Shown piece after piece: positions 1,452-35,705 of a stretch of 64,000 nucleotides of DNA (position 1 is the stretch's first letter; every line of letters begins with the position of its first letter). Source of the stretch: Escherichia coli. GTDB taxonomy: Bacteria; Pseudomonadota; Gammaproteobacteria; Enterobacterales; Enterobacteriaceae. The stretch is from the NCBI RefSeq assembly GCF_044647545.1, contig NZ_CP172818.1; one strand, written 5' to 3'. The position numbers and the translations under genes are program-made. The notes under the pieces were generated by a model, which saw only the letters and a list, made by a program, of their open reading frames with translations, searched no databases and had not been told where the DNA came from.

Positions 1452-2684
1452 TTATGCCGCCAGCACGCGGTTGCGTCCATCATTTTTCGCCCGATACAAA
1501 GCATCATCAACGCGTTTAAACAGCTCATCGATGCTTTCATTTCCTTCGTGATGCGCCACACCAATGCTGACGGTAAAGCGTGGTAAGCCCGAAATACTCA
1601 CTTTTGCCACGCTTACGCGGATAGTTTCAGCCAGCGAAAGCGCGGTATCCAGTGGGGTTCTTGGTAGCAATAAGACAAACTCTTCGCCTCCCCAACGAAA
1701 CACCAAATCGCCTTTGCGAGCGCAACTTTCGAGGGTGCGGGCGAGGGCGCATAACACCTCATCACCTTTAGAATGCCCATAGAGATCGTTAATGTGTTTA
1801 AAACGATCGGTGTCGATGAGCAATAAGCTGTAATCCTGAGCGATGGCGAGGTGCTGCATTTGGCCAGGCTCGGTAATGTGATAAAACTGTCGCCGATTCA
1901 GTAATCCGGTCATCGCGTCATGGTGGGCAGCATGTTCCAGCTGCTCCTCCAGCCGTTTTTGCTCAGTAATATCATGCACAATACATAACATGAGCTTGTC
2001 GCCATAAATTTCAATCGGCCCAGCATAGGTCTGCACATGACGAGTCGAACCATCCGCCAATTTATGAACAAAATTCAAAGGCTTATGGCCACCGGGTAAA
2101 TGCGAAATTTCATGCATGATAGGCATGACGCGTCGCCCGAGCATATTTATTTCCCAGGTATGTTTCTGGCACATCGTTTCATGGTTATAACCATAGAAAT
2201 TGAGCGCGGCGAGGTTAGCATCAACGATTTGGCCATCTCGTGAGGGGTCAATCAACAACATTGGTGCAGAGTTAGTCAGAAAAAAGCGCGCATAAAAACC
2301 TTGTTTTTTGCGCTGATAATTTGCCGAGCGACTGGCTTTTAAACCCAGCGTTGCCGGCGCTTCGATACCTTCGAAAATAATCACCGGTTCTGTTTCTGTC
2401 AGCTCTCGCAAAACAAGCCGACAGCTTAATGCTGTTTCCTCTTCTTTACGTTGAACGGTGAGGATTTCGATAATATCGTGTTGGTTTTGCAGATCGGAGA
2501 GGTATTTCGGCAGTTCTTTTTGTGAGGAGACGGAATAGGGACCGGTTCGTAGCTGACTAAACGTGAGGTCTTGCATCAACAGTCGCGCCGCGCTGTTGGC
2601 ATAAATTAACTGTTCCTCAAAGGGCGAAACGATCCAGACAGGACTGGTGAGTAAGTCCAGGGTATTGAAGTTGTGCGTAATCAT
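1452..2684 (-). CDS. dgcM: Diguanylate cyclase with PAS domains
   Basis: ORF 1452..2744; GGEEF motif (RWGGEEF) visible; likely start at internal ATG (MITHNF) giving ~410 aa. Confidence 0.85.
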   Translation of the reverse strand: MITHNFNTLDLLTSPVWIVSPFEEQLIYANSAARLLMQDLTFSQLRTGPYSVSSQKELPKYLSDLQNQHDIIEILTVQRKEEETALSCRLVLRELTETEPVIIFEGIEAPATLGLKASRSANYQRKKQGFYARFFLTNSAPMLLIDPSRDGQIVDANLAALNFYGYNHETMCQKHTWEINMLGRRVMPIMHEISHLPGGHKPLNFVHKLADGSTRHVQTYAGPIEIYGDKLMLCIVHDITEQKRLEEQLEHAAHHDAMTGLLNRRQFYHITEPGQMQHLAIAQDYSLLLIDTDRFKHINDLYGHSKGDEVLCALARTLESCARKGDLVFRWGGEEFVLLLPRTPLDTALSLAETIRVSVAKVSISGLPRFTVSIGVAHHEGNESIDELFKRVDDALYRAKNDGRNRVLAA

Positions 2685-2917
2685 TGAGATCCCGTTATTT
2701 TTATCAATTTTTGTTGCTATCCGATCGCAAAAAAGCCACGTCATATGATCAGATAATTCTGATAATGATAGACGCTATTTAACACTTCACACGGTTTGTA
2801 TACGGAAAAGCATTTTGCTTTTTGTATTCAATTTAGACAGAATTTTATTAATCATTTCAGGGTAATGGGGTGATGAGATGTTGCGTAACAGGGCCAGAAG
2901 GCTAGACTACAAAATAA

Positions 2918-3922
<1,005 letters not shown>

Positions 3923-4111
3923 CAAAAGCAATTTCTCCGGGATTCTGTATACAAAAACGCCGTAAAGTTTGAGCGAAGTCAATAAACTCCCTACCTATTC
4001 AGGGCAATATCTCTCTCGCAGGTGAATGCAACGTCAAGCGATGGGCGTTGCGCTCCATATTGTCTTACTTCCTTTTTTGAATTACTGCATAGCACAATTG
4101 ATTCGTACGAC

Positions 4112-4139
4112 GCCGACTTTGATGAGTCGGCTTTTTTTT
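4112..4139 (+). terminator. Rho-independent terminator-like hairpin with T-run
   Basis: gccgactttgatgagtcggc followed by tttttttt. Confidence 0.5.
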
Positions 4140-8414: not shown

Positions 8415-8624
8415 TTAATTTGAATACAATGCAATTCTCGAGGACTGAAGTTTCTCGCAATTAAAATTTATCAGTTTTACTTTCTGCTCTCTGGAAACGC
8501 CTGCTTCTTTTTTACCTGAGAGCATTTTTTCGCATTCTGATTTCGTTAGTTTAGATTTTGAATATCTTGTCCAGTTAGTAGGAGTGCCACCTTCCTTTTC
8601 AATAGTGGCGGTAATTTTATACAT
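8415..8624 (-). CDS. ydaC: Rac prophage small protein YdaC
   Basis: ORF 8415..8696; likely start at internal ATG (MYKITATIEKEGG). Confidence 0.65.
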   Translation of the reverse strand: MYKITATIEKEGGTPTNWTRYSKSKLTKSECEKMLSGKKEAGVSREQKVKLINFNCEKLQSSRIALYSN

Positions 8625-27340: not shown

Positions 27341-27915
27341 TGGCATTCAGAATGAGTGAACAATCACGTACCGTAAAAATTTATAACCTGCTGGCCGGAA
27401 CTAATGAGTTTATTGGTGAAGGTGACGCATATATTCCACCTCATACAGGGCTGCCAGCTAATTCTACAGATATCGCCCCACCGGAAATTCCTGCTGGCTT
27501 TGTGGCAGTTTTTAACAGTGAAAATGAATCGTGGAATATTGTTGAAGACCATCGTGGTAAAACGGTCTATGACGTGGCGTCGGGGGACGCATTGTTTATT
27601 TCTGAACTCGGACCGCTACCAGAGAATGTCACCTGGTTGTCGCCAGCAGGGGAGTATCAGAAGTGGGACGGCGTATCCTGGGTGAATGATGAGGAAGCAG
27701 AAAAACTGTTTCGGATACGGGAAGCGGAAGAAAGAAAAAGCAACCTGATGCAGGTAGCCAGTGAGCATATTGCGCCGCTTCAGGATGCTGCAGATCTGGA
27801 AATTGCAACGGAGGAAGAAACCCCGTTGCTGGAAGCATGGAAAAAGTATCGGGTATTGCTGAACCGTGTTGATACGTCAACTGCACAGGATATTGAATGG
27901 CCAGCACTGCCGTAG
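27340..27915 (+). CDS. tfaR: Tail fiber assembly protein
   Basis: 191-aa ORF start-overlapping stfR stop; Tfa-like. Confidence 0.85.
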
Positions 27916-29153: not shown

Positions 29154-29882
29154 GAAGATATTCCTTAAAATATTATTGATTTTCATTGCGATATTGTATG
29201 TCTGATTCAGGATATGTTGACTTATACATCGGTTTTGTCTGGTTATTGGATATGCCAATCCCTAATTTTATTAGAGCATGACTAAAAATGCTGAATATGA
29301 TAAGGAGCGAAGTGATTATCAGTATGCTGTTCATATAGCCTCGAATTAGTAATGTGTTATATATGATATAGTTGACAATTTTTATCCTGGGTGTTCTTAA
29401 AGTTCGTAGATAAACATTGTCGTTTCAGGTATACAGGAATGCTAACAGGTGGCGGCAAAAATCAGGCGGTTTATGGCGCAAGCTGAAGTGGCAACTGCAA
29501 ACTATCTTATGCAGAGACTCTACACGGATTGGGTTTAAAAGTATACATAGATAACAGTTTTTATCTGAAGAAGAAAAATATCAAGGTGATATAGCCTATA
29601 TGCCTTTGATGCGGAGGAATGAATGTGATGGGAGTGATGTATCTGAATAGTTGAAAAACCGCAGTCACGTCGTATGCAAGAACGTGCTGCGGTTGGTTTG
29701 ACTTTGATTGAGACGTTTTGGAATTTTTTTCGGTGGCAAAAATGGGGCAAAACGCTGCAAAAGGGGCAAAAAAGGGGCAAAAAAAGAGTGGATTATCGTA
29801 GCTTATTGTTGTCGCTGATGATATTTAACACATTGAAAAATAAGTAAAATACTTATGAGTCAGAGAGTTGTGATTTTTGCCC

Positions 29883-29936
29883 TTACTTGTTCAGGTTGTA
29901 TTGTTCTTTCTTACTAATTTCTTGATTTTGCGACAT
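29883..29936 (-). pseudogene. ttcC: Remnant of displaced original ttcA 5' end
   Basis: ATG at ~29936 reads [17 protein letters not shown] then stop at the att repeat boundary. Confidence 0.5.
29887..29929. repeat. Prophage attachment-site core repeat, distal copy
   Basis: Identical 43 bp to 6788..6830. Confidence 0.75.
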
Positions 29937-30111
29937 TTAAAAGCGACTCAATTCGTTATATGGCATCAGAAGAGTATGCGTCATGCCGGAACGCCCAGCA
30001 TAAGAAATCTGATATAAAAACTGTGGCGTGTATGGTACGGATTAGAGGGGAAAATGTCAGCACATTTGCGAAATGAATCAAAAAGCCCGCAGCAATGTGC
30101 GGGCGTTAGTG

Positions 30112-30627
<516 letters not shown>

Positions 30628-30686: not shown

Positions 30687-31820
30687 TTAGAACTGATAAA
30701 CCAGACCTAAAGCGACAATATCATCGGTAGAGATGCCGTTGGCAGCGTAGAAGCTGTCATCTTCATCCAACAGGTTGATTTTATAGTCAACGTAGGTGGA
30801 CATATTTTTGTTGAAATAGTAAGTCGCGCCAACATCGGCGTATTTAACCAGATCTTTATCATCAACACCTGCCGGGTTGTCTGCACCACCGGCAGCGTGA
30901 AGGTCACGGCCTTTAGACATCAGGAAAGAGACTGCCGGACGCAGACCAAAATCAAACTGGTACTGTGCAGTAACTTCAAAGTTCTGGGTTTTGTTCGCAA
31001 CTGCATAATCGCTGTCGCCAAACGGGGTCATGTTACGCGTTTCTGAATACATGGTTGCCAGGTAAATATTGTTAGCATCGTATTTTAGCCCAGCAGTCCA
31101 CGCGTCTGCTTTATCACCACCTGCCGCAGTATGGTTAACCTGGTCATTGGTGCGGTCAGATGAGGTGTATGCCGCACCAGCGCTAAAGCCCATGCCTAAA
31201 TCATATGTTGTGGAAAGACCCCAGCCGTCACCGTTTTCATGGCGAACATCACGTCCGTTGTTGGTGCCTTCCTGACCATTACTGGCACCTTCGTTGTTAC
31301 CTTGATACTGCACCGCGAAGTTCAGACCATTTACCAGACCGAAGAAATCAGTATTACGATAAGTCGCGACGCCGTTGGCACGACCAGTCATAAAGTTGTC
31401 TGCATTGGTATAAGAGTCACCGCCAAATTCAGGCAGCATATCGGTCCAGCCTTCGATGTCGTACATTACGCCATAATTACGTCCGTAATCGAAAGAACCG
31501 TAATCTGCAAATTTCAGTCCGGCAAATGCCAGACGGGTCCATGACTGGTTTGTTGAAGATTCAGTGTTGTTTGCCTGAATATTGTATTCCCATTGACCGT
31601 AGCCAGTGAGTTGATCGTTAATTTGGGTTTCGCCTTTAAAACCCAGACGCGCATAGCTCTGGTCGCCATCTTTCGCTGAATTATCAGAAAAATAATGCAG
31701 GCCATCAACTTTGCCATACAGATCCAATTTGTTGCCGTCTTTATTATAAACTTCGGCTGCATGTGCAGCACCTGCGGCGAGCAGGGCAGGAATTAAAAGT
31801 GCCAGTACTTTGCTTTTCAT
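30687..31820 (-). CDS. ompN: Outer membrane porin N
   Basis: 377 aa; signal peptide; C-terminal ...YQF. Confidence 0.92.
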
Positions 31821-32047
31821 TGAATAAATCCTTTAGTTATTTTATTTGCCTTTTATCCCCATTTCGGGGAGTGAAAACATCCTAAAGGAGAAGTTCAGTT
31901 AGCCGATAAATATCATTTGTTACGCCTTAAGTAAAACCTTAATCAAATAATTCTACGGAAATGATAATAAGTTTGGTGAATATATTGTTGGCGACATATA
32001 CAAAATAAAAATTATACATTTAAATAGTGATGCGTTATTCTTCGCGG

Positions 32048-32152
32048 GTTATATGCCTTTATTGTCACAAAGATTATTTTCTGTTGGACCCTTGTTACTG
32101 TTTATCCAACAAATAATGAGACAAGCCCGAACAGTCGTCCGGGCTTTTTTTT
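32048..32152 (+). ncRNA. micC: MicC-like small regulatory RNA
   Basis: 5' gttatatgcctttattgtcaca matches recalled MicC seed; ends in hairpin cccgaacagtcgtccggg + T-run (32125..32150). Confidence 0.7.
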
Positions 32153-32180
32153 AGAATTGGATAATCCTTATCCAGAGCAT

Positions 32181-35100
32181 TTAATCGGTGTTGCTTTTTT
32201 CAGCTTTTCCGGCCATTTGTGCCAGGAAGTCATAGCGTTTTTGCAAATCAGCTGCAGCATCTTTCCATAACTGTTCTGCCACTTCTGGCTGCTGCGAATT
32301 CAGACGACGGAAACGCTGCTCGTGAAGTAACGTTTCTTCCAGTGCTTCTGACGGCGGGCGTGAATCCAGCGCCAGCGGTAGTTTGCCTTCATCGGCACGA
32401 CGAGGATCAAAGCGATATAACGGCCAGAAGCCGGTAGCAGTGAGTTGGCGCATCTGGTCGTGGCTGAGAGCCAGATCGTAACCATGCTCTTCACACGGGC
32501 TATAAGCAATGATCAGCGATGGTCCCGGATACGCTTCCGCTTCCTGAATCGCTTTCACCGTCTGGTTCAGCTGCGCGCCGAGAGAAATCTGCGCCACATA
32601 AACATGACCGTACATCATCATACTGACGCCAAGATCTTTACGCGCTTTACGTTTGCCGTGCTCGCCGAACTTAGTTACTGCACCCAGCGGTGTCGCTTTC
32701 GACGCCTGACCACCAGTGTTGGAATAGCATTGCGTATCCAGCACCAGAATATTGACGTTTTCCGTCAAACTCAATACATGATCCAGACCACCAAAGCCGA
32801 TATCGTAAGCCCAGCCGTCACCACCAATCAGCCAGATTGATTTTTCCACCAGAGCATCTGCGTCACGTAGCAGTTCATGTGCTTCGGCAACATCGTTGAG
32901 TTGCTGGCGTAAAGCTGCAACCTGTTCACGACGAATCTCTGGCGTAGCGTCTGATTTCAACGCAGTCAGTAATTCCGCCGGGATTTTATCGGCAAATTGA
33001 TCCAGCAGACGCAGCACGCGGACACGGTGTTGATCGACCGTCAGGCGGAAACCCAGGCCAAATTCGGCGTTATCTTCAAACAGCGAGTTCGCCCATGCCG
33101 GCCCGCGACCGTTGGCATCGGTAGTATACGGTGTAGAGGGCAGGTTACCGCCATAAATTGAAGAACATCCCGTAGCGTTAGCGATCAACATCCGGTCGCC
33201 ATACAGCTGAGTCAGCAATTTAATATACGGCGTCTCGCCACAACCGGAGCAAGCACCGGAATATTCAAACAGCGGTGTAATCAGCTGTGATGTACGAATA
33301 TCAATACGTTCCAGTTTGCTACGGTCGATTTCTGGCAGGTTGAGGAAGAAATCGTAATTGATTTTCTCTTCTTCGACATGTTCCAGCCGCGACATCATAT
33401 TGATGGCTTTAATCTCTGGATTCTGACGGTCTTTCGCCGGGCAAACTTCGACGCACAGGTTACAACCGGTGCAATCTTCCGGAGCCACCTGCAAGACATA
33501 TTTCTGCCCGCGCATATCACGCGATTTCACATCCAGCGAATGCAGGCTGGCAGGGGCGTTTTCCATCGCTTCAGGCGGTACCACTTTTGCGCGAATAGCT
33601 GAGTGTGGGCAAGCAGCGACGCAGTGGTTACATTGGGTACAGAGTTCCTCTTTCCAGATGGGGATCTCTTCGGCGATATTGCGTTTTTCCCAGCGCGTGG
33701 TGCCCATCGGCCAGGTGCCGTCTGGCGGCAGCGCCGAAACGGGGAGGGCATCACCAAGCCCGGCGAGCATCGCCGCGGTTACGGTTTTCACGAAATCAGG
33801 GGCGGCATCGGAAACCACTGGCGGTCGATTGGCGCTGTGCGGATTTACTGGTTGCAGCGGAACTTCTTCTACGGATTCACGTGCCAGCGCCAGAGCCTGC
33901 CAGTTGCGTTCCACCAGATCCTGACCTTTGCTACTGTAACTTTTGGCAATCGCACCCTGCAATTCTGCGAGGGCGCTATCGCCAGGCAGAATTTGCGTAA
34001 GATGGAAAAAAGCCATCTGCATGACGGTATTAATACGGGCCGCCAGGCCACATTCGCGGGCGATTTTCGCCGCGTTAATCACATAGAAGCGCGCTTTTTT
34101 CTGGTTTAACACGGCCTGAACTTCCTGCGGCAAGCGCGACCATACTTCATCTGCGCTGTACGGCGTGTTGAGCAGGAAAATGCCGCCAGGTTTTAAACGT
34201 TCAGCCATCTGATATTTATCGATAAACTGCAACTGGTGGCAGCCAACAAAATCAGCCTGGGGAATCAGATAAGCGGAACGAATCGGCTGCTCGCTCACGC
34301 GAAGGTGAGAAACCGTCAGGCCGCCCGCCTTTTTGGAGTCGTAAACAAAATAGCCCTGTGCGTACCACGGCGTGGAATTACCGATAATCTTGATATTGTT
34401 TTTGGTCGCGGAAACGCTGCCATCACTACCAAGGCCATAAAACAAGGCTTCAAGTTTCGCCGAGTTTGGCAGGGTGTTATCCGGCAACGGCAGTGACAGA
34501 TTGGTCACATCATCGTAAATACCAACCGTAAAGCGCGCTTTCGGTTTAGCCGCGTTGAGCTCGGCAAATACCGCCAGTACACAGTCCGGGCCAAATTCTT
34601 TGGATGAAAGACCATAGCGCCCACCAATGACACGGGGCAGGGTTTCGCGCTCACCATTATTAAAGGCTTCTGCCAGTGCGGTCATCACATCCAGATAGAG
34701 CGGTTCTGCCTGGGCACCGGGTTCTTTGGTTCTGTCCAGTACCGCCACGCTGCGTACGGATCCCGGCAGAGCTTGTAGCAAGTGTTTGGCGGAGAAGGGA
34801 CGGTACAGGCGAACTTTCAGCACGCCGACTTTTTCGCCACGGGTTAGCAGTTCATCAACCACTTCTTCACAGGTGCCAATGGCAGAGCCCATCAGGATAA
34901 TCACCCGTTCCGCTTGCGGATGCCCGTAATACTCAAACGGCTGATACTGACGACCTGTCGCGGCAGCGAAATCATTCATCGCCTGTTCAACATGGTCATA
35001 GACCGCGTTGTACCAGGGGTTGGTGGCTTCGCGAGACTGGAAATAAGTGTCAGGATTGGCGGACGTACCGCGGATCACCGGATGTTCCGGGTTGAGCGCC

Positions 35101-35705
35101 CGGGCGCGATGAGCATCAATTTCGGCCTGCGGCATGAGATCAAGAATAGTGTCATCGGCCAGCGGGACAATTTTATTGATTTCGTGGGACGTGCGGAAAC
35201 CATCAAAGAAATGAATAAATGGCACGCGGCTCTTCAGCGTTGCGATGTGCGAAATGAGAGCAAAGTCTTGCGCTTCCTGGACGTTAGCCGCACACAACAT
35301 CGCGCAACCCGTCTGGCGCACCGCCATAACGTCGGAATGATCGCCAAAAATAGAGAGTGCATGTGTGGCAACGGTACGTGCCGCTACATGCAGGACAAAT
35401 GGCGTCAGTTCGCCTGCCAGTTTGTACAGCGTCGGGATCATCAGCAGCAAACCCTGCGATGACGTAAACGATGTTGAAAGGGCACCCGTCTGCAAAGCGC
35501 CATGCACGGTAGCGATAGCACCCGCTTCCGACTGCATTTCAACCACGCGTGGTGTGTCTCCCCAAACGTTCTTCAAGCCGTTTCCGGCCCAGGCATCAGC
35601 CTGTTCTGCCATCGTGGAACTGGGGGTAATAGGGTAGATGGCGATAACTTCACTGGTGCGAAACGCCACCGAAGCAACCGCGCCATTACCGTCAATAGTA
35701 ATCAT
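32181..35705 (-). CDS. ydbK: Pyruvate:flavodoxin/ferredoxin oxidoreductase
   Basis: 1174 aa; two 4Fe-4S ferredoxin motifs (CTQCNHCVAACP, CTGCNLCVEVCP). Confidence 0.93.
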   Translation of the reverse strand: MITIDGNGAVASVAFRTSEVIAIYPITPSSTMAEQADAWAGNGLKNVWGDTPRVVEMQSEAGAIATVHGALQTGALSTSFTSSQGLLLMIPTLYKLAGELTPFVLHVAARTVATHALSIFGDHSDVMAVRQTGCAMLCAANVQEAQDFALISHIATLKSRVPFIHFFDGFRTSHEINKIVPLADDTILDLMPQAEIDAHRARALNPEHPVIRGTSANPDTYFQSREATNPWYNAVYDHVEQAMNDFAAATGRQYQPFEYYGHPQAERVIILMGSAIGTCEEVVDELLTRGEKVGVLKVRLYRPFSAKHLLQALPGSVRSVAVLDRTKEPGAQAEPLYLDVMTALAEAFNNGERETLPRVIGGRYGLSSKEFGPDCVLAVFAELNAAKPKARFTVGIYDDVTNLSLPLPDNTLPNSAKLEALFYGLGSDGSVSATKNNIKIIGNSTPWYAQGYFVYDSKKAGGLTVSHLRVSEQPIRSAYLIPQADFVGCHQLQFIDKYQMAERLKPGGIFLLNTPYSADEVWSRLPQEVQAVLNQKKARFYVINAAKIARECGLAARINTVMQMAFFHLTQILPGDSALAELQGAIAKSYSSKGQDLVERNWQALALARESVEEVPLQPVNPHSANRPPVVSDAAPDFVKTVTAAMLAGLGDALPVSALPPDGTWPMGTTRWEKRNIAEEIPIWKEELCTQCNHCVAACPHSAIRAKVVPPEAMENAPASLHSLDVKSRDMRGQKYVLQVAPEDCTGCNLCVEVCPAKDRQNPEIKAINMMSRLEHVEEEKINYDFFLNLPEIDRSKLERIDIRTSQLITPLFEYSGACSGCGETPYIKLLTQLYGDRMLIANATGCSSIYGGNLPSTPYTTDANGRGPAWANSLFEDNAEFGLGFRLTVDQHRVRVLRLLDQFADKIPAELLTALKSDATPEIRREQVAALRQQLNDVAEAHELLRDADALVEKSIWLIGGDGWAYDIGFGGLDHVLSLTENVNILVLDTQCYSNTGGQASKATPLGAVTKFGEHGKRKARKDLGVSMMMYGHVYVAQISLGAQLNQTVKAIQEAEAYPGPSLIIAYSPCEEHGYDLALSHDQMRQLTATGFWPLYRFDPRRADEGKLPLALDSRPPSEALEETLLHEQRFRRLNSQQPEVAEQLWKDAAADLQKRYDFLAQMAGKAEKSNTD

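Follow-up and report, generated by a model that had tools for sequence, protein, structure and literature searches.

A minority Escherichia coli haplotype of the small RNA gene micC that spares the seed, central stem and terminator

MicC is an Hfq-dependent small RNA that represses synthesis of the OmpC porin - its dependence on Hfq being known from the family - and what marks the family is a discrete RNA of about 109 nt with a promoter of its own. In Escherichia coli K-12 the gene (b4427) is annotated in the interval between ompN and ydbK, so that micC as a gene call at this locus is textbook knowledge. The RNA represses an ompC::gfp fusion more than 20-fold via an extended imperfect duplex with the 5' UTR (PMC1807950), and reporter work has micC and ompN reacting jointly to beta-lactams, to depletion of sigma-E and to the loss of H-NS, in a micC-ompN region without a sigma-E core motif (PMC5745476). 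Here, we compare with these descriptions the corresponding locus from a stretch of E. coli DNA of 64,000 nucleotides (the window), whose features are collected in Table 1. Because of its Rfam match, synteny, structural conservation, complementarity to ompC and allele frequency, we regard the interval as very probably a functional micC gene, present as a minority haplotype and expected to do the same job as micC of K-12.

A preliminary description, made from the letters of the window, had placed a MicC-like small RNA between ompN and ydbK, divergent from ompN. The covariance-model search it had suggested as a check finds RF00121 (MicC) at 32045..32160 (+) with 105.7 bits over a gathering score of 90 (E 1.7e-15), spanning the full model (positions 1-123 of 123), and the layout is identical to that of K-12, where b4427 occupies the same position and strand. 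The alignment to K-12 that it had likewise proposed agrees: when the intergenic regions are aligned, the ends of b4427 fall exactly on the two ends of the window gene. Names of the neighbours, ompN and nifJ (= ydbK), were taken from RefSeq strain FDAARGOS_497, which is 100% identical to the window across this intergenic region. Counting against a functional micC is that the match scores 19 bits below K-12 micC (125.0 bits in the same test) and exceeds the threshold by only 16 bits; E. whittamii (119.4), the E69 lineage (116.3) and S. arizonae (124.9) also score higher. It is the body of the RNA, with 18 differences from K-12, that lowers the score.

Table 1. Features at the micC locus of the window, with differences from K-12 where these were counted by element
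Feature	Position	Strand	Description	Differences from K-12
ompN porin gene	30687..31820	-	377 aa; NCBIfam OmpC-subfamily porin; annotated ompN in the 100%-identical RefSeq strain; divergent from micC	
Hyperdivergent haplotype segment	31953..32125		micC upstream region and RNA body	
Putative micC core promoter	32001..32041	+	A/T-rich block AAAATAAAAAT, -35, 17-bp spacer and -10; placed by conservation and distance to the K-12 5' end	
Putative -35	32013..32018	+	TATACA; 17-bp spacer downstream	
Putative -10	32036..32041	+	TATTCT; six bases before the RNA start	
micC small RNA gene	32048..32152	+	105 nt; minority E. coli allele; Rfam RF00121; aligns end to end with K-12 b4427	
5' target-pairing region (seed)	32048..32069	+	22 nt, GTTATATGCCTTTATTGTCACA	0/22
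First linker, U-rich, single-stranded	32070..32081	+	AAGAUUAUUUUC; candidate Hfq contact	3/12
Central hairpin	32082..32111	+	stem UGUUGGA / UCCAACA, 16-nt loop (22 in K-12); agrees with the Rfam consensus hairpin	
Central stem, 5' arm			closing pair A-U (G-U in K-12)	1/7 (G to A)
Central loop			6 nt shorter in the window allele	10/22
Central stem, 3' arm				0/7
Second linker				3/8
Intrinsic terminator	32120..32152	+	hairpin and U8 tail; predicted fold (((((((.((....)).))))))) then U-run	
Terminator hairpin				0/29
U-tail				one U fewer
ydbK/nifJ pyruvate:flavodoxin oxidoreductase gene	32181..35705	-	1174 aa; TIGR02176, 1630.8 bits; nifJ or ydbK in RefSeq; converges on micC	

Further Rfam matches above gathering scores lie elsewhere in the window: McaS (545-640, -), FnrS (4018-4135, +), RalA, the RalR antitoxin RNA (8440-8618, +), and IS009 (27683-27881, +). 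McaS, FnrS and RalA followed by ompN-micC is what we take to be the order of the K-12 map around the Rac prophage. Just past uspF, FDAARGOS_497 carries the iron/manganese transporter gene sitA, whereas in K-12 this place is taken by the ttcC pseudogene and the end of the Rac prophage (window 29525-30618). Among the matches listed, RefSeq E. coli records hold no annotated feature over micC and the curated K-12 record holds b4427; for these matches, then, the gene goes without RefSeq pipeline annotation in E. coli genomes other than K-12, and sequence scans will continue to come upon it anew.

Between the window and K-12, 18 of 112 aligned columns of the RNA differ, which bears out the earlier remark that the body departs from K-12 MicC. 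Strain variation or an inexact notion of the K-12 sequence had been offered as reasons; the former holds, since across the divergent 181 bp as many as 497 of 5,426 complete E. coli genomes (about 9%) match the window allele with at least 95% identity, and the latter can be set aside. Sixteen of the 18 differences sit in the loop and linkers, with one in the U-tail and one in the stem (Table 1). The UUAUUUUC core of the U-rich linker is kept in both alleles, and from what is known of the family this linker is a candidate for Hfq contact. Judged from the comparison, the changes are confined to parts of no apparent importance for function, and we found no evidence that the window allele is altered in function.

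Support for the fold comes from an alignment of 11 MicC sequences from Escherichia, Salmonella, Citrobacter and two further genera, all retrieved with the exact 22-mer of the seed. Here the central hairpin covaries: over the seven pairs of its stem (helix 1) 93.9% of cells are paired, three of the seven pairs are changed on both sides, and these compensating changes support the stem. For the whole Rfam-style structure 94.9% of cells pair, compared to 34-56% once partners are slid by one to three columns. As a single sequence, the window RNA folds only modestly better than its shuffles (z -2.3), which counts against it but is true of the K-12 RNA as well. One of the loci, on a Citrobacter MAG contig, has MicC (131-250) directly adjoined by the Hfq-binding RNA STnc490 (145 bits, 6-129, -); this contig also carries FnrS, and its MicC neighbourhood differs from that of E. 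coli.

The 5' seed that the preliminary description had named for MicC is indeed present, 22 of 22 positions being identical to K-12. GTTATATGCCTTTATTGTCACA occurs once in the 64-kb window, at the start of micC on the plus strand; no further site turned up there even at three mismatches, and 100 shuffles gave no match. That the seed is invariant in 11 of 11 aligned MicC sequences follows by construction from their retrieval with this very 22-mer, but four E. coli alleles that came from a similarity search have the identical seed as well. Its first 16 nucleotides (GUUAUAUGCCUUUAUU) are the perfect Watson-Crick complement of AAUAAAGGCAUAUAAC, positions -30..-15 of the K-12 ompC leader and immediately upstream of the GAGGG ribosome-binding site, while nucleotides 17-21 pair further upstream on the leader, across an internal loop. 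Calculated for the 5' 30 nt alone, with a shuffle control, the duplex with the ompC leader reaches -26.5 kcal/mol against -12.8 +/- 2.5 for shuffled sequences, none of 1000 being as good. Duplex prediction for the full-length RNAs was dropped, as it returned long and physically meaningless duplexes that ignore folding within each RNA. In the predicted fold nucleotides 1-16 are unpaired. The leader we read is that of K-12 rather than of this strain; since 5,342 of the 5,370 genomes possessing this site keep it at 99% identity or more, carriers of the window allele almost certainly have the ompC target.

By analogy with K-12, the window allele would then follow the standard mechanism: its single-stranded 5' end would pair with the leader of the ompC mRNA, immediately before the ribosome-binding site, and thereby block initiation of translation. 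The pairing would be aided by Hfq sitting on the U-rich linker and on the U-tail at the 3' end. Transcription of the window allele, its dependence on Hfq and actual repression of ompC are what we infer on these grounds.

How such an RNA may be made can be read from its two ends. In the 110 bp upstream of the RNA start, the 11 sequences share a near-invariant AAAT(A/T)(A/T)AAATTATAC block and a TA(T/A)(T/G)(C/A)T hexamer, both at fixed spacing in Escherichia, Salmonella, Citrobacter and Pseudocitrobacter, and it is this conservation that suggests the putative core promoter in Table 1. A consensus promoter scan called no promoter for micC because the two hexamers agree with the consensus at 8 of 12 positions and the cut-off is 9. 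Where the promoter region differs from K-12, it does so in the spacer between -35 and -10 and further upstream, outside the conserved motifs. The RNA would start from a weak sigma-70-type promoter (TATACA, 17 bp, TATTCT), run for about 105 nt and end at the intrinsic terminator. The latter had also been proposed from the letters and consists of a G+C-rich hairpin (GCCCGAAC AGTC GTCCGGGC) followed by eight T, the last of which is the final base of the gene. A simple terminator scan of the window did not call it, which we attribute to an A.C mismatch in the stem that leaves the uninterrupted stem around a loop larger than the limit of 8. The silence of the two scans counts against a functional micC, but as their thresholds can account for it we do not read it as a sign that either element is missing. 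On the opposite strand, the same hairpin forms 28 nt past the ydbK stop codon and, we infer, may terminate both convergent genes, micC and ydbK.

What sets the haplotype apart is how sharply its divergence is bounded. Three 100-base bins (31901..32200) hold 38 differences from K-12 over a background of about 2 per 100 bases in ompN and ydbK, and these differences are confined to about 31953..32125. Over a segment of 177 bases the window allele shares 78.0% identity with K-12, as compared to 98.6% for ompN and 95.7% for ydbK in the flanks; the 133 intergenic bases adjoining ompN are identical to K-12, and so is the sequence from the terminator through to ydbK except for one T in the U-run. Carriers, one of them a strain labelled ST38, keep the window allele at 95-100% identity, and the remaining E. 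coli genomes have K-12-type sequence, about 90% identical to the window over the whole 360-bp intergenic region. In the same 177-base segment, micC of other Escherichia lineages is 79.3-81.1% identical to K-12 and 74.3-78.6% identical to the window allele. As the window allele is as far from K-12 as is micC of other Escherichia species, its sequence suggests an old haplotype or an import from an unsampled relative. No donor lineage emerged from a metagenome scan with the allele-specific loop, all 13 contigs having E. coli-type flanks, nor was any close donor found in other species among nine seed-matched loci, in a scan without the main E. coli and S. enterica representatives. Among metagenome carriers ydbK is 96.8-100% identical to the window and the segment at least 98.3%, i.e. 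the flanks differ among carriers and the segment hardly does. This fits a haplotype that has passed between E. coli backgrounds while purifying selection acted on its functional elements. A limited literature search found no papers on allelic variation or dimorphism of micC.

Several retrieved loci are disrupted or variable. In E. coli K_EC180 (about 2600-3370 of the retrieved locus), an IS1 insertion, accompanied by a 9-bp target duplication (CGCGGGTTA), lies at micC positions -5..+4 and so splits the promoter from the RNA body of a window-type allele; ETEC1701 (H70) has the same match pattern. In E. coli 300709 (1574-3084), a copy of IS1A has taken the place of most of micC, its entire promoter and the 5' part of ompN, and only the last 83 intergenic bases remain beside it. 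At the ompN site of E. coli 2014C-3075 (245-1363), a porin of about 80% identity, annotated ompC, lies beside a K-12-type micC. ompN itself is frameshifted in O157:H7 NE92 and has an internal stop in K_EC180.

If the interval is micC, it could still be that the haplotype works differently from K-12 through promoter regulation, given its altered spacer and upstream region, or through RNA stability and Hfq affinity, given its shorter loop and changed linkers, so that carriers set OmpC levels differently. The case for this lies solely in where the changes fall: they make up a segment of about 170 bp that is 78% identical to K-12 between flanks of 96-99%, they reach the -35/-10 spacer, the region from -50 to -95 and both linkers flanking the stem, and they belong to a haplotype that is common, at about 9% of genomes, and that carriers conserve well despite differing flanks. 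However, seed, stem, terminator, U-tail, -35, -10 and the A/T block are unchanged or compensated, and the pattern resembles neutral divergence under purifying selection, so to our minds a functionally different allele is rather unlikely. The broader idea that E. coli maintains two deeply diverged micC haplotypes, as an old balanced polymorphism or by import, which might change micC regulation or RNA stability and hence OmpC levels and antibiotic permeability, we hold to be just as doubtful.

Much less probable still is a decaying, non-functional remnant whose body diverged through relaxed constraint. One might point here to an Rfam score below that of every other Escherichia copy tested, to a gene dispensable enough for disruption by IS1 in some strains and to a neighbour, ompN, that is often a pseudogene. 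The changes, however, avoid every functional element, sparing seed, stem, terminator and core promoter, and it is for this reason that we think decay so improbable; besides, the lone change in the stem strengthens its pair and carriers hold the allele at 95-100% identity. A small protein encoded instead of, or besides, a regulatory RNA we consider hardly credible: an ATG-initiated frame of 33 codons (32053..32154, +) does span the RNA, but in K-12 this frame stops after 17 codons and meets two further stops, its start codon lies 5 nt from the RNA 5' end without a ribosome-binding site, and the change in loop length from allele to allele does not preserve the frame in every species. As a conserved gene this frame was therefore rejected, and with three stop codons in K-12 we take it to be a chance frame.

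As a functional micC, the window allele offers a natural record of where MicC tolerates change and where it does not. Change is accepted in the loop, in the two linkers and in the promoter spacer, but not in the seed, stem or terminator, nor in the A/T block and the hexamers at -35 and -10. As an Hfq-binding scaffold for synthetic small RNAs, the body of K-12 MicC is in wide use, so such a map of tolerance should be useful there. Were the haplotypes to differ in expression, this would have a bearing on how OmpC-dependent uptake of antibiotics differs between strains.

Set beside its closest relative, K-12 MicC (b4427, RF00121), the window allele has the same locus, strand and ends, the same 22-nt 5' end, terminator hairpin and central stem and the same complement to ompC. 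It departs from K-12 MicC in a loop shorter by 6 nt, in both linkers, in one G to A change of the stem, in a U-tail shorter by one base and in a diverged promoter spacer and upstream region, as well as in its score (105.7 vs 125.0 bits). With MicC of E. whittamii, the E. coli E69 lineage and S. enterica arizonae and diarizonae it shares the seed and the position of the hairpin with its compensating changes, and the terminator architecture and promoter motifs are those of MicC in other Escherichia and Salmonella. Unlike these, the window allele keeps the E. coli-type terminator loop and the A.C stem mismatch, and at 74-79% identity in the 177-bp variable segment it is near none of them. The porin/small RNA layout analogous to ompC/micF, which the preliminary description had pointed out, is evident too, as K-12 micF adjoins ompC on the opposite strand. 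In both cases a porin gene is accompanied by a divergent small RNA that represses the mRNA of a different porin by pairing with its 5' leader (PMC1807950), yet MicF is unrelated in sequence, targets ompF and forms a separate Rfam family.
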